Of a stretch of 64,000 bases of DNA, positions 1,198 through 18,906 are shown piece after piece (within the stretch, counting starts at the first letter, position 1; each line of letters starts with the position of its first letter). A model generated the notes under the pieces. That model saw only the letters and a program-made list of their open reading frames with translations, did no database searches and was not told where the DNA came from. Origin of the DNA: Eubacteriales bacterium (GTDB lineage Bacteria > Bacillota > Clostridia > Oscillospirales > CAG-272); NCBI GenBank assembly GCA_045660295.1, contig JAZRDN010000007.1, positions 5,438 to 69,437 on the forward strand, read 5' to 3'. Both the position numbers and the translations under genes were made by a program.

Positions 1198-2556
1198 ATG
1201 GGAAGACTTTTTGGAACTGACGGAATAAGAGGCATCGCCAACACCGAGCTTGGTTGCGACAAAGCAATGACCATCGGACGAGCCGCCGCTATCGTTCTGT
1301 CAAAGGGTCTTGAAAAAAGACCTACGTTTATCATAGGCTCGGACACCAGAGCGTCCTCCGAAATGCTTGGCGCGGCGGTATCGGCAGGAATCTGCTCGGC
1401 GGGCGCTAATGTCATCATGCTCGGCGTTGTCCCCACCCCCGCGGTAGCCTATCTCGTACAGACCTGCAAAGCAGACGCGGGCGTTATGATCTCGGCATCA
1501 CACAACCCCTTTGAGTACAACGGAATCAAGATCTTCAACGGTGACGGCTTCAAGTTGCCCGACGAGCTTGAGGAAGAAATAGAGGATATTATCCTGGGCG
1601 TTGAGGCGGTAGAAAGCCAGCCCCCCACAGGCGGCGAGATCGGTCGTATTACCTACAAGTACGACGCTGTTTCGACTTACATGGAGCACGTAAAGGCATC
1701 GACCGCGGCAAATTTTGAGGGACTCAACATCGCTATCGACTGCGCGAACGGCTCGTCCTCTGTATCGGCTGAAAAGCTTTTCGTTGAGCTTGGCGCTACG
1801 GTACATATGCTCAGCAACCACCCCAACGGAATCAACATCAACAAGAACTGCGGCTCTACCCACATGGAGCGCCTGCAAAAGTACGTGCTTGACAACAAGC
1901 TCGATTGCGGTCTCGCCTTTGACGGAGACGCCGACAGATTTCTCTGCGTTGACGAAAAGGGCAACATCATCGACGGCGACATGATAATGGCTATCTGCTC
2001 GCTTGATATGAAGAAAAAGGGCAAGCTTGCTCAAAACACGGTAGTCGGAACTATCATGACAAACTTCGGATTTACCAAGTTCTGCGCCGAAAACGGAATT
2101 AATTTCATCGCAACAAAGGTTGGCGACAGATTCGTGCTTGAGGAGATGAATCTTTGCGGCTACGCGCTCGGTGGCGAGCAGTCGGGTCACATCATATTCC
2201 GCGAATACGCGACCACGGGCGACGGTCAGCTCACCGCCGTTCAGCTTCTTTCTATCATGGTTGAGGAGAAAAAGACGCTCTCCGCGCTTGCTTCGGTAAT
2301 GACCAAGGCGCCTCAGACTATGATAAATCTCGAAATTTCGGCAAACGGAAAGCGACTTTTCTATACGGACGCTACTGTCAAAAAGGCGATCGACGACGCC
2401 GCGGCAGAGCTCGGAAGCACGGGAAGGATCGTTGTTCGTCCCTCGGGAACAGAGCCTCTTATCAGAGTTATGGCTGAGGGTGAGAACACCGAAATTATCG
2501 AAAATGTTGCCAAGAAGGTTGCCGATGTCATTACAGTAAGACTTGGCAACAAGTAA
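1198..2556 (+). CDS. glmM: Phosphoglucosamine mutase
   Basis: MGRLFGTDGIRG N-terminus, ISASHNP phosphoserine loop, DGDADR metal loop, GGEQSGH. Confidence 0.97.
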   Translation: MGRLFGTDGIRGIANTELGCDKAMTIGRAAAIVLSKGLEKRPTFIIGSDTRASSEMLGAAVSAGICSAGANVIMLGVVPTPAVAYLVQTCKADAGVMISASHNPFEYNGIKIFNGDGFKLPDELEEEIEDIILGVEAVESQPPTGGEIGRITYKYDAVSTYMEHVKASTAANFEGLNIAIDCANGSSSVSAEKLFVELGATVHMLSNHPNGININKNCGSTHMERLQKYVLDNKLDCGLAFDGDADRFLCVDEKGNIIDGDMIMAICSLDMKKKGKLAQNTVVGTIMTNFGFTKFCAENGINFIATKVGDRFVLEEMNLCGYALGGEQSGHIIFREYATTGDGQLTAVQLLSIMVEEKKTLSALASVMTKAPQTMINLEISANGKRLFYTDATVKKAIDDAAAELGSTGRIVVRPSGTEPLIRVMAEGENTEIIENVAKKVADVITVRLGNK

Positions 2557-2559
2557 TAA

Positions 2560-2697
2560 GATGCGAGCGCCAGACCGTCTTACGGCGGTTAACGAGGTAG
2601 AGGATTTATCGAAATATTCGGCGGATATCCTCTCGGCAGATACAACTGTCGCAGGCTGTTTACAAATATACGGGCAACCGTAAAACAAAAAGACAGT
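2560..2697 (+). ncRNA. glmS ribozyme (GlcN6P-activated riboswitch-ribozyme)
   Basis: AGCGCCAGAC...GTTAACGAGG...TTTATCGAAATATTCGGCGGAT...ACAAA...ACAAAA matches the glmS ribozyme core; it lies directly 5' of glmS. Confidence 0.92.
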
Positions 2698-2725
2698 CAA
2701 ATAATATTTGAGGTAACGATTTAAT

Positions 2726-4558
2726 ATGTGTGGAATCATTGGTTATACAGGAGCAAAAGACACGGTAAAGGTTCTTCTCGACGGGCTTGAAACCCTTGAG
2801 TACCGCGGATACGATTCCGCGGGCATTGCGCTCTACACGGGCTCGGGAATAAGAACCATCAAATCCAAGGGCAAGCTGGCGGTTCTTGCCGAAAAGCTTA
2901 AGAATTTCGGAACTATCAATTCCTCTTGCGGCATCGGTCACACCCGTTGGGCTACTCACGGCGAGCCGTCAGACCGCAACTCGCACCCCCATTTTACCGA
3001 AAATCTCGCTCTCGTTCACAACGGCATTATCGAAAACTACGCCGAGCTTGCGGCGGTGCTTGAGGCAAACGGCTACACCTTTTTGTCCGAGACCGACACC
3101 GAGGTGGCGGCGAAACTTATTGATATGCTCTATATCAAGTACAAAAATCCCCTTAAGGCAATTTTTGAGTCAACCGAAATAATTCGCGGCTCTTACGCCT
3201 TCGGAATTGTGTTCGCGGACATTCCCGACACAATTTATTCCATAAGAAAGGACTCGCCGCTTATCGTGGCAAGGTCCGCAGACGGCGGTATGATCGCTTC
3301 CGACATCCCCGCCATACTGGCTCACACCAAGGAATATTACCGCCTTGACGAGGGCATTGTGGCAAAGATAACGCGCGACGAGGTGCGCTTTTACACAAGC
3401 GATTTCAGCGAGGTCGGGCAGAAGCTCGAAAAGATCGACTGGGACGTTGAACAGGCTCAAAAGGGCGGTTATCCTCACTTCATGATAAAGGAGATACATG
3501 AAGAACCCGAGGCAGTGAGAAAAACCCTCGCGCCAAGAATCAGAAATCGGCTTCCCTTCTTTGAGGTCGAAGCGCTCGACACCGATTTTATCAACCGCTT
3601 TGAGCGTATTCACATAGTTGCCTGCGGCACGGCTATGCACGCGGGACTTGTGGGAAAAACGATAATCGAAAGGCTGGCGCGAGTTCCCGTAATTGTGGAG
3701 ATTGCCAGCGAGTTCAGATACCGCGACCCGATACTCGGCAAAAACGACCTTGTTATCCTGCTTTCACAGTCGGGCGAAACCGCAGACACGCTGGCGGCGC
3801 TCAGGCACGCCAAGGCGTGCGGAGTCTATACGCTTGCCATCGTCAACGTAATGGGCTCGTCGGTAGCCCGCGAGGCAGACAGCGTAATCTACACGTGGGC
3901 TGGTCCCGAAATAGCGGTAGCAAGCACCAAGGCTTACACCGTCCAGTGCGCGCTTCTTTACCTTTTCGCCATAAGACTTGCGATAGCAAAGGACAAAATA
4001 AGCGAAGCCGACGCGGCGGCGCTCTGCGCGGATATGCTTACTGAAATTCCTCGCTCCATTGAAGAAGCGCTTAAGCTCGAGGAGCAGATAATGAACTGCG
4101 CAAAGAGCTTTGTCACCGCGGAGCACCTGTTCTTTATCGGTCGCGGAATTGACTATTCCATAGCCGTAGAGTCCTCTCTGAAGCTCAAGGAGATATCCTA
4201 TATCCACAGTGAGGCATACGCGGCGGGCGAACTGAAGCACGGCACTATCTCTCTGATTGAGGAAGGAACGCCCGTAATCGCTATCACCACAGAGAAAAGG
4301 ATATGCGAAAAGACGGTATCGGGCATCCGAGAGGTCAAGGCGCGCGGTGCCAACGTACTTTCGGTGTGCACCGAGTCGCTTTCAAAGCAGTTCAATATTC
4401 CCTGCAACGAAATGCTGATAGTTCCCGATACCCGTGAGGAGCTTGAGCTTTTCCCCGCGGCGACTATTTTGCAGTTGTTTGCATACTCGGTATCGTATGC
4501 AAAAGGGCTCAACGTTGATAAGCCCAGAAATCTCGCAAAATCGGTAACAGTTGAATAA
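2726..4558 (+). CDS. glmS: Glutamine--fructose-6-phosphate aminotransferase
   Basis: N-terminal MCGIIG, GIGHTRWATHG, SQSGETADT, ELKHG, PRNLAKSVTVE C-terminus. Confidence 0.98.
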   Translation: MCGIIGYTGAKDTVKVLLDGLETLEYRGYDSAGIALYTGSGIRTIKSKGKLAVLAEKLKNFGTINSSCGIGHTRWATHGEPSDRNSHPHFTENLALVHNGIIENYAELAAVLEANGYTFLSETDTEVAAKLIDMLYIKYKNPLKAIFESTEIIRGSYAFGIVFADIPDTIYSIRKDSPLIVARSADGGMIASDIPAILAHTKEYYRLDEGIVAKITRDEVRFYTSDFSEVGQKLEKIDWDVEQAQKGGYPHFMIKEIHEEPEAVRKTLAPRIRNRLPFFEVEALDTDFINRFERIHIVACGTAMHAGLVGKTIIERLARVPVIVEIASEFRYRDPILGKNDLVILLSQSGETADTLAALRHAKACGVYTLAIVNVMGSSVAREADSVIYTWAGPEIAVASTKAYTVQCALLYLFAIRLAIAKDKISEADAAALCADMLTEIPRSIEEALKLEEQIMNCAKSFVTAEHLFFIGRGIDYSIAVESSLKLKEISYIHSEAYAAGELKHGTISLIEEGTPVIAITTEKRICEKTVSGIREVKARGANVLSVCTESLSKQFNIPCNEMLIVPDTREELELFPAATILQLFAYSVSYAKGLNVDKPRNLAKSVTVE

Positions 4559-5107: not shown

Positions 5108-7615
5108 TTATTTCTTAAGTCCCAGCTTCTCGACCGCGTCCTCACGCATCTTATACTTGAGTATCTTGCCTGCCGCGTTCATCGGGAAGGCCTTTACAAA
5201 GTCGATATATCTGGGCACTTTATGACGCGCCATGTGGGAAACGATATAATCCTTCATTTCCTCAACAGTCATATCCTCGCCCTCTTTGAGAATTATACAA
5301 GCCATTATCTCCTCGCCGTAGCGCTCGTCGGGCACGCCGATGACCTGAACGTCACGCACCTTGGGATGAGTATAGATAAATTCCTCTATCTCCTTGGGGT
5401 AAATGTTCTCACCACCGCGGATTATCATATCCTTAAGGCGACCCGTGATACGGTAGTTACCGTTCGAGTCACGGCAAGCGATATCGCCTGTGTGAAGCCA
5501 GCCGTCAGCGTCAATAGCGTCGCGGGTAGCGATGGGCATTTTATAATAACCCTTCATTACGTTATATCCGCGCGCCACGAACTCGCCGTTCTCGCCGTCG
5601 GGAAGCTCCGCGCCGGTTTCGGGGTCAATTATCTTACATTCAACATGCGGGAAAGCGTATCCGACTGTCTCGGTACGATCGTCTATGGGGTCGTCAAGCT
5701 CGCTCATGGTACATCCGGGCGAAGCCTCGGTCTGACCGTAAACGCTGACGATACCGCGCATATTCATCTCGTCGGGCTGTGCCGCGCGCTTCATAAGGTC
5801 AGCGGGGCAGTTAGCGCCAGCCATAATTCCCGTTCTCATATAAGAGAAATCGGTCTTGCGGTAGTCCTCATGGTTGAACATCGCTATAAACATTGTGGGA
5901 ACGCCGTTAAAGGCAGTAATATGCTCGTCATTTACGCAAGCAAGCGCGGATTTGGGTGAGAAATACGGAAGCGGATAGATAGACGCGCCGTGTGTCATTG
6001 AAGCGGTCATGGAAAGCACCATTCCGAAGCAATGGAACATAGGAACCTGTATCATCATGCGGTCGGCGGTGGAAAGATCCATTCTGTCGCCGATACACTT
6101 ACCGTTGTTGACAACGTTATAGTGAGTAAGCATAACGCCCTTGGGGAAGCCTGTCGTACCCGATGTGTACTGCATATTACATACGTCATCAGGCTCAACT
6201 GCCGCCGCGCGGCGATATACTTCTTCAAGCGGAACTCGATGAGCAAGTCCAAGCGATTCCTCCCACGTAAGGCAGCCCTCCTTGCGGAAGCCTACGGTAA
6301 TAACGTTACGCAAGAACGGAAGTCTCTTACAGTGAAGCGGCTCGCCCGCCTTTGTGTCCTTAAGCTCAGGGCAAAGCTCGCTGATAGTGCCGTTATAGTC
6401 CGAGTCTCTCCAGCCGTCAACCATAATAAGAGTATGGGTATCCGACTGACGAAGCAGATATTCAGCCTCGTGGATCTTATAAGCGGTATTCATAGTAACC
6501 AGCACCGCGCCGATCTTTGTGGTCGCCCAAAAGGCAATATACCACTGGGGCACGTTGGTCGCCCAGACAGCTACGTGATGACCGGGCTTTACGCCAAGCG
6601 CGATAAGCGTGCGCGCGAATGTGTCAACGTCGTCTCTGAACTCGGCATAAGTCCTCGTATAATCAAGAGTAGTATACTTAAAGGCTATCTGGTCGGGAAA
6701 TTCCTCGACCACAGCGTCAAGCACCTGCGGGAAGGTAAGGTCAATAAGCGACTCCTTTTTCCAAAGGAACTTACCCGTGTGAGTCTTGTTGCTGTAAAGC
6801 GTTTTCTTGTTCTTTTTGGGGTCGTCGAAGTGGTGCATATAGCTGACGAAATGAGAGAAGATTATCTCTATATCGTCTATATCGTCAAGCCACTTGGAGT
6901 CCCACTCAAGAGACACGAAGCCGTCGTAGTTTACGGCGCGAAGGCTATTCATCATGTCGCTCATGGGAAGCTCACCCTCACCGATAAGGCAATACTTAAG
7001 CTCGCCGTTATCGCGCTTTGAGTCCTTGATATGCACGTGCTTAACGTACGCACCGAGATTTTTTATAGTAATGTCGGGGGCCTCGCTCGCCGAGAAATAC
7101 GTATGATACATATCCCAAAGCGCGCCGAGGTTGTCCGAAGCAAAATGATTAAGCACGTCGCGGAGCTTTTCGGTAGTAGCGAAAAGTCCGACAGTTTCAA
7201 GCAGAATTGTTACTCCTGTCTTTTCGGCGATGGGAAGCATAACGTCAAGACACTTCTCTGTCATTTCCATATCGCCGTCGGTAATACCCGTTCCCGCGTG
7301 AATACGGACGTAGGGTATCTTGAGGTTTCTGGCGGTATTGATGCAATCACCGATCTCCTTGCAGTTCTCGTCAAACGCCGCGGAATCGGCTATATTGCAA
7401 GCCGCGTCAAGACAAGGAATAGACAGACCTCTGTTTATCATATCCCTTACGATAGCAAAAGAATTTGCGGGATCAAAGGGGTTACCGGAGCTGCGAAATT
7501 CCTTGTTTTTTATATTATGAAGCTCTACGCCGGCAAAGCCAAGCTCGGAAGCGATATTGCAGTAATCCTCCCAGCCGTAATTCTGCCAGCCCTTGATGGA
7601 GAATGACAGTTTCAT
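5108..7615 (-). CDS. Fusion of a xylose-isomerase/AP-endonuclease-2 TIM barrel with an AMP-dependent acyl-CoA synthetase
   Basis: N-terminal TIM motifs LLETVG, WDMYH, HVHIKD, SLEW. C-terminal QYTSGTTGFPKG, YGQTE, WLHTGD and GKILK adenylate-forming motifs. Confidence 0.85.
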   Translation of the reverse strand: MKLSFSIKGWQNYGWEDYCNIASELGFAGVELHNIKNKEFRSSGNPFDPANSFAIVRDMINRGLSIPCLDAACNIADSAAFDENCKEIGDCINTARNLKIPYVRIHAGTGITDGDMEMTEKCLDVMLPIAEKTGVTILLETVGLFATTEKLRDVLNHFASDNLGALWDMYHTYFSASEAPDITIKNLGAYVKHVHIKDSKRDNGELKYCLIGEGELPMSDMMNSLRAVNYDGFVSLEWDSKWLDDIDDIEIIFSHFVSYMHHFDDPKKNKKTLYSNKTHTGKFLWKKESLIDLTFPQVLDAVVEEFPDQIAFKYTTLDYTRTYAEFRDDVDTFARTLIALGVKPGHHVAVWATNVPQWYIAFWATTKIGAVLVTMNTAYKIHEAEYLLRQSDTHTLIMVDGWRDSDYNGTISELCPELKDTKAGEPLHCKRLPFLRNVITVGFRKEGCLTWEESLGLAHRVPLEEVYRRAAAVEPDDVCNMQYTSGTTGFPKGVMLTHYNVVNNGKCIGDRMDLSTADRMMIQVPMFHCFGMVLSMTASMTHGASIYPLPYFSPKSALACVNDEHITAFNGVPTMFIAMFNHEDYRKTDFSYMRTGIMAGANCPADLMKRAAQPDEMNMRGIVSVYGQTEASPGCTMSELDDPIDDRTETVGYAFPHVECKIIDPETGAELPDGENGEFVARGYNVMKGYYKMPIATRDAIDADGWLHTGDIACRDSNGNYRITGRLKDMIIRGGENIYPKEIEEFIYTHPKVRDVQVIGVPDERYGEEIMACIILKEGEDMTVEEMKDYIVSHMARHKVPRYIDFVKAFPMNAAGKILKYKMREDAVEKLGLKK

Positions 7616-9132: not shown

Positions 9133-10200
9133 TTACTTTGTTATGGGATATGTCCAGTTATAGGTGTCCTCTAGTCGTCCCCACTGAATTCCTGTCAAGG
9201 TGTCGTAAAGCTCCTGTGTTGTCTCGCCTATCTTTCCGTCATTGATAACGTATCTCTTGCCGTTATAATGAAGCTCGCCGATAGGAGACACAACAGCCGC
9301 GGTACCGCAGCCCCAGCCCTCTTTAAGAGTGCCGTTTTCAAGAGCATCAATAAGCTCGTCGATAGAGAGAAGTCTCTCAGAGACCTTCTGTCCCTTAGCC
9401 TTAAGAAGCTCTATGCACGATTTTCTCGTGATACCGGGAAGAATAGAGCCTGTAAGCGCGGGGGTTACAACCTCGTCGCCAATCTTGAACATTACGTTCA
9501 TGGCGCCGACCTCCTCGATATACTTACGCTCAACGCCGTCAAGCCAAAGAACCTGAGAGAAGCCCTTCTTTTCAGCCTTCTCGCCCGCTCTGTTGGACGC
9601 GCCGTAGTTACCGCCGCACTTGGTGTAACCCGTACCGCCGCGAACCGCGCGGACGTCCTCGGTCTCTATCATAATCTTAACGGGGTTAATTCCCTCTTTG
9701 TAGTAGCTTCCTACGGGAGAGAGAATGATAACGAACATAGAACGGTTGATGGAGTGAACGCCAAGGAAGGGGTCTGCTCCAAAGAGGAAGGGTCTGATAT
9801 AAAGAGACGTACCGGGAGCTGAGGGAACCCAGTCCTGCTCTACCTCAATAAGCTTTGTAAGGGCTTCGAGAGCGTCCTTTTCATCAAGCAACGGAAGGCT
9901 CATACGGTCTGCCGAGCTGTTCATTCTCTTTATATTCTCCTCGGGTCTGAAAAGCTGAACCTTACCCGCTGCGGTGCGGTAAGCCTTAAGACCCTCGAAT
10001 ATCTCCGCGCCGTAATGGAACACTGTGCAGGCGGGGTGAAGCTCAAGATTAGCAAAAGGAACTATTCTCGCGTCATGCCAGCCCTTATCACGTGTGTAGT
10101 CCATTATAAACATGTGGTCAGTGAAATATTTTCCGAAACCGAGCTCGCTCGCATCAGGCTTTTGCTTGGGAGCGGCGGTTTTCTGAATTTTGATCTCCAT
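9133..10200 (-). CDS. ilvE: Branched-chain amino acid aminotransferase
   Basis: FHYGAEIFEGLKAY, LYIRP, TKCGGNY, EEVGAMN, ILPGITR. Confidence 0.95.
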   Translation of the reverse strand: MEIKIQKTAAPKQKPDASELGFGKYFTDHMFIMDYTRDKGWHDARIVPFANLELHPACTVFHYGAEIFEGLKAYRTAAGKVQLFRPEENIKRMNSSADRMSLPLLDEKDALEALTKLIEVEQDWVPSAPGTSLYIRPFLFGADPFLGVHSINRSMFVIILSPVGSYYKEGINPVKIMIETEDVRAVRGGTGYTKCGGNYGASNRAGEKAEKKGFSQVLWLDGVERKYIEEVGAMNVMFKIGDEVVTPALTGSILPGITRKSCIELLKAKGQKVSERLLSIDELIDALENGTLKEGWGCGTAAVVSPIGELHYNGKRYVINDGKIGETTQELYDTLTGIQWGRLEDTYNWTYPITK

Positions 10201-10232
10201 GATAATTTTCCTTTCTGAAATATCTGTCCTTA

Positions 10233-10769
10233 TCAGTCCTTATAATTATAACCAAGCTCAAGAGCCTTAAGGTTAGCGCCTATAAGGTCGGCGCGCTTTG
10301 CCGAAACTATCTTCTTGAACACGTCCTCAAGACCGTCGAAGTCAACCGCGCCGGTCTCCTTAATGAGCTTGCCAAGAAGTATCATATTAGCAAGTGTGGG
10401 GACGCCTGCCTCTGCCGCCATTTTCGTAGCGGGAATATAGTAAGCGTCAACGTCTGTTCTCTCGACCTTTCTCTCGATAAACGAGGAGTCAACGAATATC
10501 TTACCGCCCTTTGCAACTGCGTTTTCGTACTTGTCAAGCGAGGGAAGATTCATAACCATAAGCACGTCGGGATTATCGACGATAGGCGAACCAACGGGGG
10601 TATCACTTATAATAACGCTACAGTTTGCCGTTCCGCCTCTCATTTCGGGACCGTAGGAAGGAAGCCAGCTAAGCTCCTTATTTTCATACATTCCCTTATA
10701 AGCCAGAAGCTTACCCGCAAAGAGAACGCCCTGACCGCCAAAGCCCGCAATCAAAATCTGATTTGTCAT
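10233..10769 (-). CDS. 2-oxoacid:ferredoxin oxidoreductase gamma subunit
   Basis: AGFGGQGV and [12 protein letters not shown] motifs. Confidence 0.92.
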
Positions 10770-11518
10770 TTCTGTTCCTCCTCTGCGGTTTTGTCCTTAT
10801 ATACGCCGAGAGGATAGTAAGGAAGCATCTTTTCCTCCACCCACTCAAGCGCCTTTGAGGGTGTAAGACCCCAGTTTGTGGGGCAGGTGGAAACGACCTC
10901 AACAAGAGAGAAGCCCTTTCCGTTTACCTGATTTTCAAACGCCTTCTTTATAGCCTTCTTCGCGTTCTTTACGTTCTTTACGTTATTTACCGCTACTCTT
11001 TCAAGGTATGTAGCGCCCTCAAGCTCGGAAAGAAGCTCGCAAACGCGGATAGGATAGCCTGCGGTCTTGGTGTCACGTCCGTAGGGAGAGGTCTGTGTCA
11101 CCTGACCGGGAAGCGACGTGGGAGCCATCTGACCGCCTGTCATGCCGTAGATAGCGTTGTTTACGAAGATTATGGTGATATTCTCGTTTCTTGTAGCGGC
11201 GTGGATAGTCTCAGCCATACCGATAGAAGCGAGGTCACCGTCACCCTGATATGTAAAGACGATATTATCGGGGTTTGCGCGCTTAACGCCCGTAGCAACT
11301 GCGGGTGCGCGTCCGTGAGCCGCCTGAACCATATCGCAGGCGAAATAGTTATATGCCATAACAGAGCAGCCTACGGGAGCGATACCAATAGTCTTGCCCT
11401 CGATGCCAAGCTCGTCAATAGCCTCTGCTACGAGTCTGTGAATAATACCGTGTGTGCAGCCGGGACAGTAGTGAAGCGGCGCATCGGTAAGAGAATGGGG
11501 TTTATCAAATACTACCAT
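10766..11518 (-). CDS. 2-oxoacid:ferredoxin oxidoreductase beta (TPP-binding) subunit
   Basis: YCPGCTHG, GDGD, NNAIYGMTGGQ, CPTNW. Confidence 0.92.
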   Translation of the reverse strand: MVVFDKPHSLTDAPLHYCPGCTHGIIHRLVAEAIDELGIEGKTIGIAPVGCSVMAYNYFACDMVQAAHGRAPAVATGVKRANPDNIVFTYQGDGDLASIGMAETIHAATRNENITIIFVNNAIYGMTGGQMAPTSLPGQVTQTSPYGRDTKTAGYPIRVCELLSELEGATYLERVAVNNVKNVKNAKKAIKKAFENQVNGKGFSLVEVVSTCPTNWGLTPSKALEWVEEKMLPYYPLGVYKDKTAEEEQK

Positions 11519-12576
11519 CAGTTAATACCTCCTGCTTCCTTAATTTTCGCAAGAACCTGCTCGGGAGAGGGGATCATGCCGCCTGCTCTGTTGCAAAGAA
11601 GCACAGGCTTTTTGCAGCGTGTGGCAAGCTCAACGTCCTCGATCATCTGTCCCATAGACATCTCAACCGTAACGAACGCGTTGACCTTGTCAGCCGCCTC
11701 GCGGAGAACCTTCTTGGGGAAGGGCCAAAGCGTAATAGGTCTGATCATACCTACCTTGATACCCTGCGCGCGAGCCGCCGTAATAGCGTTCTTGGAAACT
11801 CTTGCGGCAATACCGTATGCAACGACGCAGATCTCGGCGTCGTCCATCATGTATTCCTCATACATTACCTCGTTTTCTTCGATCTGCGCGTACTTTTGGT
11901 AGCGCTCGAAGTTAAGCTGCTCAAGCTCATCGGGAACAAGCGAAAGAGAGTTGACGATATTGTGCTTTCTCTGCATCTTCGTGCCCGTTACAGCCCAAGG
12001 CTTGTCATATTTCTTCTGCTCGGGAATATCGAGAGAAACAGGCTCCATCATCTGACCCATAGTACCGTCAGCGAGTATCATGGAAACCATTCTGTACTTA
12101 TCCGCAAGCTCAAAGCCCTTAACCGTCATGTCAGCCATTTCCTGAACAGACGCGGGAGCGAGAACGATATTTCTGTAGTCACCGTGTCCGCCGCCCTTAG
12201 TGCACTGGAAATAATCCGACTGAGAGGGCTGGATACCTCCGAGACCGGGGCCTCCGCGCTGTACGTTGATAACAAGAGCGGGAAGGTCACAACCCGCGAG
12301 ATAAGATATACCCTCGCTCTTAAGCGAGATTCCGGGGCTGGAGCTGGAAGTCATAACTCTTCCGCCCGCCGCCGCAACGCCGATAACCATATTGATAGCC
12401 GCGACTTCGCTTTCAGCCTGAAGGAAAGTACCGTCTATCTTAGGCATACGCTTTGCCATGTATGCCGCAATTTCTGTCTGAGGTGTAATGGGGTAGCCGA
12501 AGTAGTGACGGCATCCCGCAAGAATAGCCGCTTCGGCGATAGCCTCGTTACCCTTCATCAAAACCTTTTCTGCCAT
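11518..12576 (-). CDS. vorB: 2-ketoisovalerate:ferredoxin oxidoreductase-type alpha subunit
   Basis: MKGNEAIAEAA, GYPITPQTE, QAESEVAA, SSSPG, QRGGPG. Lies next to ilvE. Confidence 0.85.
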   Translation of the reverse strand: MAEKVLMKGNEAIAEAAILAGCRHYFGYPITPQTEIAAYMAKRMPKIDGTFLQAESEVAAINMVIGVAAAGGRVMTSSSSPGISLKSEGISYLAGCDLPALVINVQRGGPGLGGIQPSQSDYFQCTKGGGHGDYRNIVLAPASVQEMADMTVKGFELADKYRMVSMILADGTMGQMMEPVSLDIPEQKKYDKPWAVTGTKMQRKHNIVNSLSLVPDELEQLNFERYQKYAQIEENEVMYEEYMMDDAEICVVAYGIAARVSKNAITAARAQGIKVGMIRPITLWPFPKKVLREAADKVNAFVTVEMSMGQMIEDVELATRCKKPVLLCNRAGGMIPSPEQVLAKIKEAGGIN

Positions 12577-12610
12577 TTTAATCCTCCGTATCCGTTTTAA
12601 CGGTTAGTTT

Positions 12611-12817
12611 TTATTTCTCAACTTTTATGATGCAATCGGGGCACATTGTAGCGCAGAATGCGCAACCGATACAAGCCTCTTGGTTTGTTATCTCGGCAAC
12701 GTAATGTCCCTTTTTGTTGATTTTCACCTTGGAAACCTCAAGAATATGCTTGGGGCAGGCGTCAACGCAAAGTCCGCAGCCCTTACACATATCAACGTTA
12801 AATGTCAGCTTAGCCAT
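12611..12817 (-). CDS. 2x[4Fe-4S] ferredoxin (oxidoreductase delta subunit)
   Basis: Two CxxCxxCxxxCP motifs. Confidence 0.92.
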   Translation of the reverse strand: MAKLTFNVDMCKGCGLCVDACPKHILEVSKVKINKKGHYVAEITNQEACIGCAFCATMCPDCIIKVEK

Positions 12818-12829
12818 TTATTTTTCCTC

Positions 12830-13504
12830 CTAAATCAGTTTTTTCTGCAATTTCATTTTCAAAAGCCTGCCGTTCCCTTCCCCAAGGCTCTCGATGCCGT
12901 CAAAGCAAGGAAAATCGGGGACGGTGGTGAGCTTGATATCAAGTCCCGATAGTCGTGATACGCTCTCTGCGTATTCAAACGAATCCTTGACCGTTTGGGG
13001 TGTGGTCTCGGGTCCTAAATTGGAGTTGTTTACAATTCCGTTAAAGGGTATACCCGACGCCGCCTCTATCTCACGCATTATCTCCACCGTATCCTCGGGT
13101 GTCGAGGTAAGCGGACGGTAGCAATTGATAACGAAAAGCATATCGTAGTCGTTTTCTTCAAGTATGCTCGGCGTATATCTGCCCAAAGCGAAAGCGCCTC
13201 GGTCGTCTCCGCCGATATCAAGCACCGCGTGGCGGTTCTTGTCGAAAACCACTTTATACATCTCTGCGGGAAGTGCGGGCAGGTCCACGTTCGAGTTAGC
13301 GAACTCTGGGGATATAAGGTGTATTCCCGCCTCGGTCAGTTCCCTTTCGCTGTCCTTTGTTCGGAAATAAGGATTGACCGTATCAAGGTCGGCGATAGTG
13401 ACCTCAAGCCCCGACGCCTTAAGCTCGAAGGCGTAATTCACCGCCGCGTTGGTCTTTCCGCTTCCGTAGTGACCCGCGAAAAGCGTTATTCTTTTATATT
13501 CCAT
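12830..13504 (-). CDS. P-loop NTPase (MinD/CbiA-like) of unknown function
   Basis: GHYGSGKT Walker A, DLDTVNPYFR, DIGGD. Confidence 0.75.
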   Translation of the reverse strand: MEYKRITLFAGHYGSGKTNAAVNYAFELKASGLEVTIADLDTVNPYFRTKDSERELTEAGIHLISPEFANSNVDLPALPAEMYKVVFDKNRHAVLDIGGDDRGAFALGRYTPSILEENDYDMLFVINCYRPLTSTPEDTVEIMREIEAASGIPFNGIVNNSNLGPETTPQTVKDSFEYAESVSRLSGLDIKLTTVPDFPCFDGIESLGEGNGRLLKMKLQKKLI

Positions 13505-13519
13505 ATGCCCTCCGACGAA

Positions 13520-15820
13520 TTAAAGCTTGTTTCTCTGTATCTTTCCGCTGGTTGTCTTGGGCAACTCTGTCTTAAATACTACTATTCTGGGATACTTATA
13601 GGGTGCTGTACGGCTCTTTACGTAGCTCTGAATCTCCTTCTTAAGCTCGTCTGTGCCCTCTGTTCCCTTGGTAAGCACGATGCTCGCCTTGACCACCTGA
13701 CCTCTTACCTCGTCGGGAGCGGCGGAAACACCGCACTCGAGAACGTAAGGAAGCTCCATAATAACGTTTTCGATCTCAAAGGGACCGATACGGTAGCCCG
13801 AGGACTTGATAACGTCGTCAACTCGTCCAACGTACCAGAAATATCCGTCCTCATCACGCCAAGCGGTATCGCCCGTATGATAATATCCGTCGTGCCATAC
13901 CTCGTTTGTTTTTTCACTGTCGTTATAATAACCTCTGAAAAGTCCGCAGGGCGCGCCGTTCTGTACGTTTATACAAATTTCACCCGTTTCACCCACAGGA
14001 ACCTCGTTTCCGTCTGCATCAAGCAGCTTGATGTCGTAAAGCGGAACAGGCTTACCCATAGAACCGAGTCTTGCCTTTGTACCGATAAGGTTAGCAAGCG
14101 CAACGGTGGTCTCGGTCTGACCGAAGCCCTCCATTATCTGCAGTCCCGTAGCCGCCTCGAACTGTCTGAACACCTCGGGGTTGAGAGCCTCGCCCGCTGT
14201 GGTCATATGCTCGATAGTCGAGAGGTCGTACTTTGAGATATCCTCTTTAACCATAAGTCTGAGCATCGTAGGCGGTGCGCAGAAGGTGGTGATATTATAC
14301 TTAGCGAACATAGGAAGGATATCGTGAGCGTCGAAGCGGTCAAAGTCATAAACGAACAGACCTGCCTCGCAGAGCCACTGCCCGTAAATTTTACCCCACG
14401 CCGCCTTAGCCCAGCCGGTGTCCGAGATGGTAAGGTGGAATCCGTCGGGATTTACGCAATGCCAATACTTGGCTGTAATAAAGTGACCGAGCGGATATTT
14501 GTAGTTATGGCAAGCGATCTTGGGATTGCCCGTAGTGCCCGAGGTAAAGTACATGAGCATAAGCTCCTCGCCGCAAGCGGTGTCCTCGGTGCGCTCGAAT
14601 TTACCCGTGTAAAGGTTATATTCGTCGTCGAAGCTTCTCCAGCCCTCTCGCGTGCCGCCGACAATTATCTTAGTCTCAAGGCACTCGGCGTGCGCCGACG
14701 CCTTATCGACCTCTGCCGCCACGTTGTCGTCGGCGGTACAAAGCATCGCCTTTACGCCCGCGGCGTTAAGTCTGTATTCGATATCGTGCTCCTTAAGCTG
14801 ATTGGTTGCGGGAATAGCCACCGCGCCCAGCTTATGAAGCGCCACCATAGCGAACCAGAACTGGTAATGTCTCTTCAGGATAAGCATTACCTTATCGCCC
14901 TTCTTGATACCCAGCGACTTGAAGTAGTTAGCGGTCTGTGAGGACGCGCGCTTAAGGTCGGCGAAGGTAAATTTTCTTTCGGTCTTATCCTTTGCGATAT
15001 GAACCATAGCCACCTTATCGGGCTGTTCAACGCCGATTCGGTCAACCACGTCAAATGCAAAGTTGAATTTATCCTCGTTCTTGAAGTCTATAGCCTTAAG
15101 AATTCCGTTGTCATCCTCTGTGGGAATAATGAAATCCTCCCATACGCGGCGTCTTGTCGCCTTGACCTCGCTCTTTCTGGGCTTGGCGGTAAACTCCTTG
15201 ACCGCGCTGTGGGTGATTTCCGACATAGAAACGCCCGCGGGGTTAAGAACTATCGCGTAGAAGTAACAGTCTTCACCGCCGATAGCTATCATACCGTGAG
15301 GCGTGGAGCTATCGTAGTAGATGCTGTCGCCTTCCTCAAGAATCTCCTGATGGTCGCCCACCTGAACCTTAAGCCGTCCCTTAACCACGATGTCACATTC
15401 CTGTCCCTCGTGGGTGGTAAGCTCTATCGGCTCATACTCAGCCTTTTCCGAGTACACGCAGTGAACGTAAAGAGGGTTTGAGGTTCTGTTTCTGAAGGAG
15501 TGCGCGATATTGTAATAGGTCATTCCGTGCGCCTGCTCGATCCTCTGTCCCATTCCGCGTCTTGTAAGGGTATAGGATTTAAGTCTGGGAGCAGCGCCCT
15601 CGATGATCTCGGTAACGTCAATGCCCAGCGCGGTAGCGCATCTGAACAGGAACGCAAAGTTAAGGTCGGAGCGACCCTCCTCGCACTCTACGTACTCGCC
15701 GATGCTTACGTCGGTCTTTGACGCCATATATTCAATGGTATAGCCTTCCATTTCACGGAGCGCCTTGATACGCCCCGCCATGGCTTTTATTTTCTGGTCG
15801 ATGTCGTTAAAATTACTCAT
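13520..15820 (-). CDS. XRE-HTH + cupin + acyl-CoA synthetase fusion (paralog 2)
   Basis: N-terminal HTH, THEGQE cupin, YFTSGTTGNPK, FGQTET, YHTGD, SGKIQR. Confidence 0.9.
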   Translation of the reverse strand: MSNFNDIDQKIKAMAGRIKALREMEGYTIEYMASKTDVSIGEYVECEEGRSDLNFAFLFRCATALGIDVTEIIEGAAPRLKSYTLTRRGMGQRIEQAHGMTYYNIAHSFRNRTSNPLYVHCVYSEKAEYEPIELTTHEGQECDIVVKGRLKVQVGDHQEILEEGDSIYYDSSTPHGMIAIGGEDCYFYAIVLNPAGVSMSEITHSAVKEFTAKPRKSEVKATRRRVWEDFIIPTEDDNGILKAIDFKNEDKFNFAFDVVDRIGVEQPDKVAMVHIAKDKTERKFTFADLKRASSQTANYFKSLGIKKGDKVMLILKRHYQFWFAMVALHKLGAVAIPATNQLKEHDIEYRLNAAGVKAMLCTADDNVAAEVDKASAHAECLETKIIVGGTREGWRSFDDEYNLYTGKFERTEDTACGEELMLMYFTSGTTGNPKIACHNYKYPLGHFITAKYWHCVNPDGFHLTISDTGWAKAAWGKIYGQWLCEAGLFVYDFDRFDAHDILPMFAKYNITTFCAPPTMLRLMVKEDISKYDLSTIEHMTTAGEALNPEVFRQFEAATGLQIMEGFGQTETTVALANLIGTKARLGSMGKPVPLYDIKLLDADGNEVPVGETGEICINVQNGAPCGLFRGYYNDSEKTNEVWHDGYYHTGDTAWRDEDGYFWYVGRVDDVIKSSGYRIGPFEIENVIMELPYVLECGVSAAPDEVRGQVVKASIVLTKGTEGTDELKKEIQSYVKSRTAPYKYPRIVVFKTELPKTTSGKIQRNKL

Positions 15821-15850
15821 TAATACCTCCGAAAATCATATCTGTCTTCG

Positions 15851-16121
15851 AAAACAAAACTCGTCTCAAAGACGTGAAGAATCTTTGAGACGAGTACAAT
15901 TAATTCTACCCGCGGTACCACTCAACTTGCGCCGATACGGCGCCACTCTCGGACTCAAAGAAGCCCTATGCGTTCACGCAGCAATCACGGAGAGGTTCTA
16001 CTTGCTCTCGCTTTCTTCCTCTCGGCTCGGGGGCTACAAACACCGACCCGCACAACACCGACTTACACCAGCCGTCGGCTCTCTGCGCTTCTGCGAACCG
16101 TATTCTCCCCGTCCTCGCCTT
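15851..16121 (-). promoter_or_regulatory. T-box riboswitch with a probable Val (GUA) specifier, plus terminator
   Basis: AAGTTGAGTGGTACCGCG T-box (15911-15928), K-turn, AG bulge and GCTGGTG distal loop, GUA at 16035-16037, terminator hairpin 15859-15894. Promoter TTGACA-17-TAGAAT at 16141-16169. Confidence 0.88.
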
Positions 16122-16220
16122 TCATATTATATGTATTAAAATTCTATCACATTTTTATCATCTTGTCAAGCAATATCGAAAGTTTTCGAAATTTCGGCAA
16201 ATTTCACAATTTTCGCGTGA

Positions 16221-18491
16221 TTATAGCTTGTTTCTTTGGATTTTTCCGCTGATGGTTTTGGGAAGCTCATCGCGGAACACAACGATTCTGGGGTACTTAT
16301 AAGGAGCGGTATGCGACTTAACGTAGCTCTGGATCTCCTTTTTAAGCTCCTCTGTTCCCTCCGTGCCCTTTGTAAGCACGATGCTTGCCTTGACCACCTG
16401 ACCTCTTACCTCGTCGGGTGCCGCGGAAACGCCGCACTCAAGGACGTAAGGAAGCTCCATGATAACGCTCTCGATCTCGAAGGGACCGATGCGGTAGCCC
16501 GAGGACTTGATAACGTCGTCGATACGGCTGACGTACCAGAAATATCCGTCCTCGTCACGCCAAGCGGTATCGCCGGTGTGGTAAAGTCCGTCGCAAACGG
16601 CTTCTTTGGTCTTTTCCTCGTCGCGGTAGTATTCTCTGAACATACCGCAAGGGGAACCCTTATCAAGGTGAATAACGATCTCACCCACCTCACCGTTGGG
16701 AAGCGATCTGCCGTCGGGGTCTACGATATCAACGTCGTACTGAGGAGACGCCTTACCCATAGAGCCGAGCTTGGGAGTTGTGCCCACAAGGTTTGCGATG
16801 GTAAGAGTTGTTTCGGTCTGACCAAAGCCTTCCATGATAGTAAGTCCCGTAGCCGCCTCGAACCGGCGCGACACCTCGGGGTTGAGCGCCTCGCCTGCGG
16901 TTGTCATATGGTGAATAGACGTAAGGTCGTACTTGGAAAGGTCCTCTTTTATAAGCATTCTGAGCATCGTTGGGGGGGCGCAGAACGTGGTAATATTATA
17001 CTTGGCGAACATGGGAAGGATCTCAGCCGCAGAGAATCTGTCAAAGTCGTAAACGAACACCGCGCCCTCGCAGAGCCACTGACCGTAGAGCTTACCCCAA
17101 AGAGATTTACCCCAACCCGTGTCGGAGATAGTGAGATGCAATCCGTCACGCTCGCAGCAATGCCAATACTTAGCGGTCACGTAATGACCCAGCGCGTAGG
17201 TATGCTTGTGGGAAGCCATTTTGGGGTTGCCCGTTGTTCCCGACGTAAAGAACATAAGCGCCGCCTCGTTTCCGCAAGAGGAATCGGCGGTACGCGCGAA
17301 TTTGCCCGAGTACAGACCGTACTCGCTGTCAAAGTCGTGCCAGCCCTCGCGAGTTCCTCCCACAAGGATCTTGGTCTTGAGCTGAGGGCAGCTTTCAGCC
17401 GCTTTGTCAACGATCTCGGCAACGTCATCATCAGCCGTGCAAAGGATAGCCGAAACGCCTGCCGCGTCAAAGCGGTAAACGAAATCGTGGTCCTTAAGCT
17501 GGTTGGTTGCGGGAATTGCCACCGCGCCGAGCTTATGAAGCGCCACCATAGCGAACCAGAACTGGTAGTGTCTCTTAAGCACCAGCATTACTCTGTCACC
17601 CTTCTTGATACCCAGCGAGGTAAAGTAGTTAGCGCACTGCGCCGACGCGCGCTTGATGTCCTTAAAGGTAAAGCGGCGTTCGGTCTTATATTTATCAACG
17701 TGGAGCATAGCCAGCTTTTCGGGATAAGCGTCGGCGATCTCGTCAACGATATCAAAGCCGAAGTTAAAGCTCTCCTGATTGGGGAAGCTGATAGACTTAA
17801 GGCATCCGTTTTCGTCCTCCTCGGTCTTAATAAACTTCTCACAAACAAGCTTTTCGGTCTTTCTCGCGGTAGCGATGCTCTTTCTGACGGTCTCCTCCTT
17901 GGTATCCTCGCCCGGAAGAACGACCGCGCAGAACACGCAGTCCTTACCGTCAACGGCGATCATACCGTGTGGAGTGGAGCTGTTATAATAAATGCTATCG
18001 CCTTCATGAAGCACCTCTATATGGTCACCGACCTGCACCTTAAGGCTACCCTCAAGCACAAGGTCAAACTCCTGTCCGCTATGGGAGATAAGGTGAATGG
18101 GCTGGTTCTGCTGTTTTTCCGAATATTCGTAACGAACCCAGTACGGCTCCGCGATCTTCTTATTGAATTTGGGCGCAAGGTTACAAATTTCGATACCGTC
18201 CTCTTTAGCGGTCTCCTGACCCTGTCCGCGTCTTGTCACCGTATAGGACGAAAGCAGGGGCGAGGTTCCCTCAAGAAGGTCATTCATCTCAACGCCTAAC
18301 ACCTGCGCGCAGCTATGAATAAAGGTAAACGGAAAATCTACCGTACCCTCCTCGTATTTTTTGTAGTTATCAAGTGACACCTTTACCAAAGCAGCCATCT
18401 GCTCCTCGGTGTAGCCCGAGATCTCGCGCATGTCTCTGATACGACCCGCGATCTCAAGTAGCTTTGCGTTTTGTGAATTGTTGTTCTGCAT
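16221..18491 (-). CDS. XRE-HTH + cupin + acyl-CoA synthetase fusion (paralog 1)
   Basis: Same architecture as 13520-15820, with a near-identical C-terminal region (FFTSGTTGNPK, SGKIQRNKL). Confidence 0.9.
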   Translation of the reverse strand: MQNNNSQNAKLLEIAGRIRDMREISGYTEEQMAALVKVSLDNYKKYEEGTVDFPFTFIHSCAQVLGVEMNDLLEGTSPLLSSYTVTRRGQGQETAKEDGIEICNLAPKFNKKIAEPYWVRYEYSEKQQNQPIHLISHSGQEFDLVLEGSLKVQVGDHIEVLHEGDSIYYNSSTPHGMIAVDGKDCVFCAVVLPGEDTKEETVRKSIATARKTEKLVCEKFIKTEEDENGCLKSISFPNQESFNFGFDIVDEIADAYPEKLAMLHVDKYKTERRFTFKDIKRASAQCANYFTSLGIKKGDRVMLVLKRHYQFWFAMVALHKLGAVAIPATNQLKDHDFVYRFDAAGVSAILCTADDDVAEIVDKAAESCPQLKTKILVGGTREGWHDFDSEYGLYSGKFARTADSSCGNEAALMFFTSGTTGNPKMASHKHTYALGHYVTAKYWHCCERDGLHLTISDTGWGKSLWGKLYGQWLCEGAVFVYDFDRFSAAEILPMFAKYNITTFCAPPTMLRMLIKEDLSKYDLTSIHHMTTAGEALNPEVSRRFEAATGLTIMEGFGQTETTLTIANLVGTTPKLGSMGKASPQYDVDIVDPDGRSLPNGEVGEIVIHLDKGSPCGMFREYYRDEEKTKEAVCDGLYHTGDTAWRDEDGYFWYVSRIDDVIKSSGYRIGPFEIESVIMELPYVLECGVSAAPDEVRGQVVKASIVLTKGTEGTEELKKEIQSYVKSHTAPYKYPRIVVFRDELPKTISGKIQRNKL

Positions 18492-18550
18492 GGTTTTTCC
18501 TTTCTGCCTCTCTCGGCAATAAACGTTATTGACCGGATCTTCGAGACCGT

Positions 18551-18820
18551 AAAAAACAAAACCGTCTCAAAGAAATTTCTTTCTTTGAGACGGGTAAAAA
18601 TCATTTTATCCGCGGTACCACTCAAATTGCGCCAACAAGACGCCACCTCTTCGGACTCCGGCAAGCCCTATGCGTTAACGCAGCAATCACGGGAGAAGCC
18701 TACTCGTATTCTTTCAGCACTCCGGCTCGGAAGTGATAGGTTTATAAACGCTCTGCCATTGGCTCGCACCCTACGCCAACTCTCTGGAAGCATACCGTTT
18801 GACCGTCTTCGTCACAGCCT
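18551..18820 (-). promoter_or_regulatory. T-box riboswitch with a probable Ile (AUC) specifier, plus terminator
   Basis: AATTTGAGTGGTACCGCG (18611-18628), K-turn GAC-GAAG/CUUC-CGA, AUC at 18735-18737, terminator 18561-18594. Promoter TTGACA-17-TATAAT at 18840-18868. Confidence 0.88.
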
Positions 18821-18906
18821 TTTTTATTTGGTTGTGGTGATTATACACCTTTTTCCCCGATTTGTCAAGAGATTTTTTGAATTTTTTCTCATTTTTCTCT
18901 CATTTT

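Follow-up and report, generated by a model that had tools for sequence, protein, structure and literature searches.

Two T-box leaders with isoleucine and valine codons mark a probable branched-acid salvage cluster in an Oscillospirales bacterium

We describe a gene cluster on the minus strand of a 64,000-nucleotide stretch of DNA (the window: positions 5,438 to 69,437 of contig JAZRDN010000007.1, assembly GCA_045660295.1) from a Eubacteriales bacterium of the Oscillospirales lineage CAG-272. It encodes two paralogous acyl-CoA ligases, each with its own promoter and T-box leader, together with a VOR-type ferredoxin oxidoreductase and the aminotransferase IlvE (Table 1). We consider it likely that the cluster is a T-box-gated salvage system, which converts branched acids to isoleucine and valine by reductive carboxylation. 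Branched short-chain fatty acids are abundant in gut and rumen, and since the 1960s it has been known that many anaerobes of these habitats require, or can employ, isobutyrate, 2-methylbutyrate and isovalerate for valine, isoleucine and leucine. To our knowledge, the genes and the control of this route were never pinned down. An earlier note on the same DNA had delimited the region as 9133-18820, in agreement with the span from ilvE through the first T-box, and had described in it two acyl-CoA synthetase paralogs with XRE and cupin domains, each behind its own promoter and T-box. That description is borne out by matches to the Rfam family RF00230, by the promoters, by the domain content and by the 65% identity of the two proteins over their full length.

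The specifier codons of the leaders were read from a structural alignment. In 32 Stem I sequences (alignment A1), with pairs counted against the Rfam-derived structure, 93.9% of the cells are paired and double changes occur at 12 of 15 pairs. A 4-bp helix (columns 15-18/103-106), whose start lies one base 3' of the codon, has all its cells paired (100%) and shows compensatory double changes at three of its four pairs (GAAG/CUUC, GAGG/CCUC, GGAG/CUCC, GAUA/UAUC, GUGG/CCAC and others). Sliding the partner by ±1 over the whole structure lowers pairing from 94% to about 40%. The complete pairing of this helix and its compensatory changes thus fix the register of the specifier. A finder based on regular expressions yielded many false alternative registers and was superseded by a covariance model on the Rfam-derived structure.

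This covariance model, R1, was built on A1 and detected 153 Stem I elements across the window and a comparison set of 80 related loci taken from species genomes. Specifiers were read where the model alignment places the codon, and each element was assigned to the first downstream gene. All 67 elements ahead of a ligase of type 1 read AUC; those ahead of a ligase of type 2 read GUA (46) or GUC (4), and those ahead of a LeuA-like gene read CUC (18) or CUG (6). The codon therefore tracks the ligase paralog perfectly over the 80 loci. A codon, unlike a chance triplet, would be expected to vary synonymously at its third base, as is seen in the Val and Leu classes. On a tree of 128 ligases carrying the helix-turn-helix (HTH)-cupin module, a single change suffices for the Ile and Val labels, and support for the Val-linked clade is 100. 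The two elements of the window read AUC (Ile) and GUA (Val) under R1. These are the codons given in the earlier note, which had proposed a covariance-model prediction among its checks; the Rfam alignment, the independent model and the covariation all confirm the assignment.

Two other loci carry unusual specifier elements. At L075:12320-14140, a Val (GUA) T-box precedes decayed fragments of an HTH-cupin ligase, with cupin, AMP-binding and AMP-binding_C in separate open reading frames. A replacement enzyme driven by this T-box is ruled out, as the downstream frames are those of the decayed ligase itself, a pseudogene if not an artefact of assembly. At L060:3461-3560, on the minus strand, the covariance model finds a Stem I with an AUG (Met) specifier, about 1.1 kb from the T-box of a Leu arm (L060:4676-4777).

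Both T-box leaders of the window are real. The Rfam alignment places in their Stem I a kink-turn (K-turn), a specifier loop with the codon and an AG bulge/distal loop. Both carry the conserved T-box sequence AGUGGUACCGCG with a UGGN bulge; the T-box bulge of leader 1 reads UGGUACCGCG. In each leader the 5' arm of the terminator overlaps the 3' strand of the antiterminator, so that the two structures are mutually exclusive. A gene for tRNA-Val(UAC), matching the GUA specifier, is present in the genome. The genome also has tRNA-Val(GAC), and its two Val T-boxes differ in codon: that of valS (contig C48:17217-17420, minus strand) uses GUC where that of ligase 2 uses GUA; the valS and ligase 2 operons may watch different tRNA-Val isoacceptors.

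The catalytic domains of the two ligases appear to group with the only two characterised CoA ligases for alpha-branched short acids, MacsMa and MbcS. For both paralogs the best NCBIfam family is MbcS (NF047394; 432.7 and 443.1 bits), and the closest solved structure is MacsMa (PDB 3ETC, E 4.5e-187), the ligase domains aligning end to end. MacsMa, the medium-chain acyl-CoA synthetase of Methanosarcina acetivorans, prefers 2-methylbutyrate (PMC10455477). MbcS is selective for 2-methylbutyrate and isobutyrate, while isovalerate is a very poor substrate and acetate is inactive (PMC10026030). Trp259 shapes the acyl pocket of MacsMa, and the meaning of a Gly at the position of Acs Trp414/416, together with the alternate Trp259, has been described (PMC10455477). 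Both clades keep this MacsMa-type pocket, in the motifs EGFGQTE (whose Gly replaces Acs Trp414/416) and GW[G/A]K..WGK (with Trp259). Such a placement points away from a preference for acetate or aromatic acids, which the earlier note had held up against its own proposal.

A position was counted as clade-specific if its conservation reached 85% or more inside each clade while no more than 10% was shared between the two. There are 18 such positions: 17 fall in the N-terminal HTH-cupin region and one in the catalytic domain of about 515 residues. This sole catalytic position corresponds to residue 255 of MacsMa (Gly461 in ligase 1, Ala471 in ligase 2) and lies four residues before Trp259, in the GW[G/A]K..WGK segment. 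MacsMa and 99% of the Ile clade have Gly there, and the Val clade has Ala (100%). The extra methyl group in the Val-clade pocket would be a change in the direction expected for isobutyrate, which is one carbon smaller than 2-methylbutyrate. We propose that ligase 1 is a 2-methylbutyrate-CoA ligase and ligase 2 an isobutyrate-CoA ligase.

It is rather unlikely, in our estimate, that both enzymes are instead broad CoA ligases for alpha-branched acids, with two T-boxes that merely raise the ligase dose and a codon that is silent on the substrate. A dosage device would not require two diverged genes, and the paralogs form separate clades with a perfectly matched specifier, with one change among 128 proteins. 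MbcS and MacsMa each take more than one branched acid, and the main pocket motifs of the window ligases (AKYWH, TTFCAPPT and EGFGQTE) are identical between the Ile and Val clades, which leaves a single strict difference in the catalytic domain; that lone residue, however, sits in the pocket segment and changes the volume in the expected direction.

The enzymes for the later steps are encoded downstream. The oxidoreductase is of the VOR type, with four subunits (delta, alpha, beta and gamma): the alpha subunit is above its family cut-off, with open reading frames for a thiamine pyrophosphate (TPP)-binding beta subunit, a gamma subunit and a ferredoxin next to it, the beta and gamma subunits being under their specific NCBIfam cut-offs. 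The transaminase is a genuine IlvE. The earlier note had read from the sequence a VOR-type oxidoreductase and ilvE downstream of the ligases, and both identifications hold, with NF005507 and NF009897 above their cut-offs.

The cluster recurs in related genomes with the gene order [LeuA-like, TIM-ligase] ligase 1, ligase 2, [IlvE], P224, ferredoxin, VorA, VorB, VorG, [IlvE], across the 80 loci. Both ligases are found in 55 of them, and 47 extend to VOR. The conserved P-loop protein that we call P224 always stands directly ahead of the ferredoxin-VOR genes, after the ligases or IlvE. It has no family assignment in Pfam or NCBIfam; its model has a predicted local distance difference test score (pLDDT) of 89, and the nearest folds are the G-domains of SRP54/FtsY and the ATPase-type HypB. 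Our guess is that P224 might be an accessory or maturation factor for VOR. VOR, IlvE and P224 are each single-copy in the genome.

The genome, 1.64 Mb in size and 93% complete, lacks much of the canonical branched-chain pathway. Neither ilvC nor ilvD was found in it, while the control genomes all have them. There is also no true leuB, the best candidate scoring 148 bits against a cut-off of 353; the controls have this gene too. Among the 40 other cluster-bearing genomes ilvD is absent in 35, and it is present in 14 of 14 controls; leuB above the cut-off is absent in 39 of 41 genomes, this one included. With ilvC, ilvD and leuB absent, a salvage route is needed. The whole genome encodes four AMP-forming ligases: three belong to the cluster, two of these with their own T-box, and the fourth is part of another T-box operon.

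The probable direction of the pathway can be argued from its control. The predicted induction at starvation, combined with AMP-forming ligases that consume ATP, argues for synthesis and not for degradation. We regard it as extremely improbable that the cluster is catabolic, with IlvE and VOR oxidising branched-chain amino acids to acyl-CoAs in a Stickland-type reaction and the ligases recycling or exchanging the acids. VOR-type enzymes are reversible, and oxidative in many peptide fermenters, but a T-box switches on its genes in response to uncharged cognate tRNA, and degrading a scarce amino acid would be senseless. AMP-forming ligases burn ATP and are not used in energy conservation, and the cluster holds no ADP-forming acyl-CoA synthetase or PTB/BUK pair. 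We reject the catabolic direction on these regulatory and energetic grounds.

A chief role in lipid synthesis seems very unlikely as well. Under that explanation the ligases, induced at a shortage of Ile or Val, from which primers normally derive, would mostly supply branched acyl-CoA primers for membrane fatty acids, and amino-acid synthesis would be secondary or absent. The acyl-CoA products could feed FabH, and MbcS, the closest named family, has exactly this primer-supply role in S. aureus (PMC10026030). Here, however, dozens of genomes show the ligases in conserved synteny, and apparently co-transcribed, with an oxidoreductase of the VOR type and IlvE, and genomes without ilvC, ilvD and leuB must obtain the amino acids themselves from somewhere. 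T-boxes, moreover, classically govern the supply of the cognate amino acid. Primer supply and amino-acid synthesis are not mutually exclusive uses.

We now propose a scheme for the salvage of branched acids to isoleucine and valine. At leader 1, uncharged tRNA-Ile would pair with the specifier, AUC, and with the bulge, UGGU, and stabilise the antiterminator, allowing transcription of ligase 1, which would convert 2-methylbutyrate to 2-methylbutyryl-CoA. Uncharged tRNA-Val(UAC) would in turn open leader 2, and with it transcription of ligase 2, P224, ferredoxin-VorABG and IlvE; ligase 2 would convert isobutyrate to isobutyryl-CoA. With reduced ferredoxin, VOR would reductively carboxylate the two acyl-CoAs to 2-oxo-3-methylvalerate and 2-oxoisovalerate, and IlvE would transaminate these to isoleucine and valine, respectively. 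A dead LeuA-like protein and a TIM-barrel-ligase would take isovalerate to leucine, under a Leu T-box found in relatives and not in this genome.

Such conversions are documented: as summarised in PMC7356843, citing Allison and co-workers, rumen anaerobes convert 2-methylbutyrate to isoleucine, isobutyrate to valine and isovalerate to leucine. The VorB-type alpha subunit and the four-subunit enzyme of the window would suit this reductive carboxylation. The work of the 1960s and 1970s, as it is cited there, comes without genes or regulation, whereas here a gene set, a P224 partner and a tRNA-based control are proposed.

Several points weigh against the salvage proposal. Both leaders stay under the RF00230 gathering score of 93 (Table 1) and are for that reason missed by a default scan and by standard annotation: the default Rfam scan of the window gave a glmS ribozyme and two tRNAs only, and the T-boxes surfaced with permissive filters. 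This shortfall is one of scoring, not of structure; the matches of both leaders cover model positions 1-219 in full. In the assembly, which is 93% complete, we found no gene for tRNA-Ile(GAU); it probably sits in an unassembled rRNA operon. Five of the 40 cluster-bearing genomes have ilvD, so the cluster is not a strict substitute for the canonical pathway. The promoter of the Val arm lies directly 3' of the ligase 1 stop codon, with no terminator between ligase 1 and leader 2, and the shared VOR and the single IlvE stand behind the Val T-box; it is therefore not obvious how a lack of isoleucine alone would switch on the later steps. The ligase scores are far under the MbcS equivalog cut-off of 850, hence their specificity is not transferable by family membership. 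Position 255 of MacsMa is put beside the acyl pocket by its adjacency to Trp259 in the sequence and by the pocket residues that Meng et al. 2010 reportedly give, not by distance in three dimensions. Finally, we infer the substrate preferences of the ligases, the carboxylating direction of VOR and the response to tRNA from sequence and gene context.

The two ligases share with MacsMa and MbcS the catalytic domain, the Gly in place of Acs Trp414 and the Trp259 segment. They differ in a fused N-terminal module of about 245 residues, made of an XRE-type HTH and a cupin, and in being two specialised paralogs under separate T-boxes, whose products are proposed to serve amino-acid and not lipid synthesis. 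At least 8000 HTH-cupin-ligase sequences exist, labelled merely 'AMP-binding protein'. In 50 sequences of the module the positions of the His-Glu-His metal triad of the cupin are invariant. The model of the module (pLDDT 76.5) matches, at a Foldseek E-value of about 1e-10, Fe(II) enzymes of the HppE type and the XRE-cupin regulator 1Y9Q of V. cholerae. These have in common with it a two-domain fold of an HTH-like alpha domain and a cupin. In contrast to them, the module here is fused to an enzyme, the identity is 17-22%, and TM-scores are about 0.34, low because the orientation of the domains differs. For these anaerobes, a reaction that depends on O2 is unlikely.

The module is a candidate DNA-binding regulator, a candidate allosteric sensor, or both. 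In the 140 nt upstream of Stem I of about 140 leaders we found promoter hexamers and A-rich tracts only, with no conserved operator, which leaves autoregulation by the HTH at the ligase promoters unsupported. The 17 paralog-specific residues, of 18 in all, that map to the module lie within residues ~1-215, and several of them (97, 100, 102 and 112) belong to a segment with pLDDT below 50.

A third arm, absent from the earlier note, is found 3' of ilvE, where a LeuA-like gene and ligase 3 are translationally coupled. Compared with 3RMJ, the LeuA-like protein reads INRTG at LRDGxQ and QLS at HxH, GERAGN is deleted, and the catalytic Asp is lost. None of 29 orthologues keeps both His, and two of the 29 keep the Asp. 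The protein is below the cut-off on all NCBIfam LeuA profiles and retains the allosteric domain of LeuA. The lost catalytic motifs and the absent leuB rule out a canonical LeuA role for it, and the conservation of this loss across orthologues marks it as an apparently maintained pseudoenzyme. Plausibly, it would act as a leucine sensor for ligase 3.

The acyl-CoA ligase domain of ligase 3 belongs to a different family from that of ligases 1 and 2. In relatives, a Leu T-box (CUC or CUG) precedes the pair of LeuA-like gene and TIM-ligase; in the window, the 108-nt gap after ilvE holds no T-box and has a TATAAT at 9080-9075. From these features, the third arm probably handles the conversion of isovalerate to leucine. 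Two MacsMa-like ligases for isoleucine and valine, and one of a different family for leucine, fit the substrate ranges of MacsMa and MbcS. At three other loci (L074, L080 and L082; Lachnospiraceae, Ruminococcus and metagenome-assembled genomes of uncultured Clostridia), the TIM-ligase, ligase 1 and ligase 2 are separated by gaps of only 13-56 nt, with no internal T-boxes: likely a single operon under different regulation.

Table 1 Features of the cluster, in coordinates of the window
Feature	Coordinates	Strand	Evidence
Promoter, Ile arm, TTGACA-17-TATAAT	18840..18868	-	12/12 consensus matches, sigma-70-type
T-box leader 1	18583..18824	-	Rfam RF00230, 85.7 bits, E 6.1e-18; covariance model R1, 79.4 bits
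Specifier of leader 1, AUC (Ile), next base A	18737-18735	-	Rfam alignment and R1 columns
Intrinsic terminator of T-box 1, 14-bp stem and U tract	18562..18593	-	
Ligase 1, 756 aa, XRE-HTH + Cupin_2 + AMP-binding + AMP-binding_C	16221..18491	-	Domain matches
Promoter, Val arm, TTGACA-17-TAGAAT with TG	16141..16169	-	Sigma-70-type
T-box leader 2	15883..16124	-	Rfam RF00230, 81.4 bits, E 7.5e-17; covariance model R1, 73.1 bits
Specifier of leader 2, GUA (Val), next base G	16037-16035	-	Rfam alignment and R1 columns
Intrinsic terminator of T-box 2, 15-bp stem and U tract	15859..15895	-	
Ligase 2, 766 aa, same domain architecture as ligase 1	13520..15820	-	Domain matches
P224, 224-aa SIMIBI-class P-loop NTPase, motif GHYGSGKT	12830..13504	-	
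Ferredoxin, 2x[4Fe-4S], 68 aa, delta-type oxidoreductase subunit	12611..12817	-	Fer4
VOR alpha subunit, VorB-type	11518..12576	-	NF005507, 545.5 bits (cut-off 399)
VOR beta subunit, TPP-binding	10766..11518	-	PF02775; TIGR02177, 131.8 bits (under cut-off)
VOR gamma subunit	10233..10769	-	PF01558, E 1.1e-37
IlvE, branched-chain amino acid aminotransferase	9133..10200	-	NF009897, 478.3 bits (cut-off 307); TIGR01123, 397.6 bits (cut-off 250)
LeuA-like putative pseudoenzyme, 470 aa	7612..9024	-	PF08502 LeuA_dimer, E 2.5e-30
Ligase 3, 835 aa, xylose-isomerase-like TIM barrel + AMP-forming acyl-CoA ligase	5108..7615	-	

Elsewhere in the window, a glmS ribozyme (2555-2708, plus strand, 74.4 bits) lies directly 5' of the glmS open reading frame (2726-4558), an ordinary arrangement.

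T-boxes with a comparable logic occur in other operons, in the same genome and beyond, and speak for the same principle. On contig C32 of this genome (locus L003), outside the window, a T-box lies at 2010-2255 of the plus strand; the roughly 6 kb behind it encode a symporter for Na+ and a solute, an acyl-CoA ligase of 545 aa and IorA/IorB, the indolepyruvate:ferredoxin oxidoreductase. The orthologous leaders of the IorAB-linked ligase in six other genomes have an invariant UAC in the specifier loop. As judged from these alignments, the leader probably reads Tyr, and the operon would be an aromatic analogue of the branched-chain one. An ACN (Thr) frame is compatible with the sequence, UAC being invariant and the next base variable; it was set aside, as Thr makes no sense beside IorAB and the 5-bp helix of most orthologues puts UAC in the codon slot.

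In genome G016, a UUC (Phe) T-box comes right after IorB (L137:603-705 / L138:6279-4969, minus strand; also L134:446-547, minus strand). The gene behind it is a PaaK-type phenylacetate-CoA ligase (TIGR02155, 525 bits, cut-off 646), followed by a dipeptidase, an aminopeptidase and an Opp permease. Back in the genome of the window, on contig C43 (locus L002), a UGG (Trp) T-box at 171702-171950 of the plus strand precedes a stand-alone trpB (TIGR00263, 508 bits), which suggests salvage of indole to tryptophan under the control of tRNA. Altogether, it seems that the rule connecting codon and ligase is a general strategy in these bacteria.

T-box leaders on genes of amino-acid supply are familiar from Firmicutes; the ilv-leu operon of B. 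subtilis, for example, has a Leu T-box. The leaders of the window share with known T-boxes the Stem I with its K-turn, the specifier loop, the AG bulge, the UGGN bulge and the competition between antiterminator and terminator. They differ in what they control: acid-CoA ligases, a 2-oxoacid:ferredoxin oxidoreductase and IlvE, in place of transporters, tRNA synthetases or the genes of de novo synthesis. A genome-wide survey of T-box regulons that covers transporter T-boxes (Wels et al. 2008) used the specifier codon to predict the function of the downstream gene; its text mentions neither oxidoreductase, acyl-CoA, ferredoxin nor salvage (PMC2494555). In the searchable literature we found no description linking T-boxes to the salvage of branched acids by reductive carboxylation. 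The T-box mechanism, the physiology of reductive carboxylation and the specificities of MacsMa and MbcS are already known; new, as not found in that literature, are the gene set, its proposed gating by tRNA, the family of fused putative sensor-ligases, and the paralog-specific codon and pocket residue.

It is possible, though we advance it with reserve, that gut and rumen Clostridia with reduced genomes, as a large group, have exchanged de novo amino-acid synthesis for a modular salvage regulon of two layers. The ligase of each acid would then be gated both by a T-box, which reads how far the tRNA of the product is charged, and by a ligand-sensing module fused to the ligase or coupled with it, the metal-binding HTH-cupin for isoleucine and valine and the dead LeuA with its leucine-binding domain for leucine, and the rule would extend to aromatic acids through IorAB. 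If so, 17 of the 18 paralog-specific residues, those in the HTH-cupin, would reflect discrimination between isoleucine and valine, or between the acids, and T-box codons could assign substrates to acyl-CoA ligases that are otherwise unannotatable.

For the branched-acid route, the cluster offers a full set of candidate genes together with a starvation signal, and it yields a testable specificity rule for a very large ligase family that bears a generic name. Riboswitch codons can in this way annotate enzymes, and not transporters alone. Supplementation with branched-chain volatile fatty acids is practised in herbivores, and the cluster may explain the growth requirements for branched acids and the cross-feeding in their guts.

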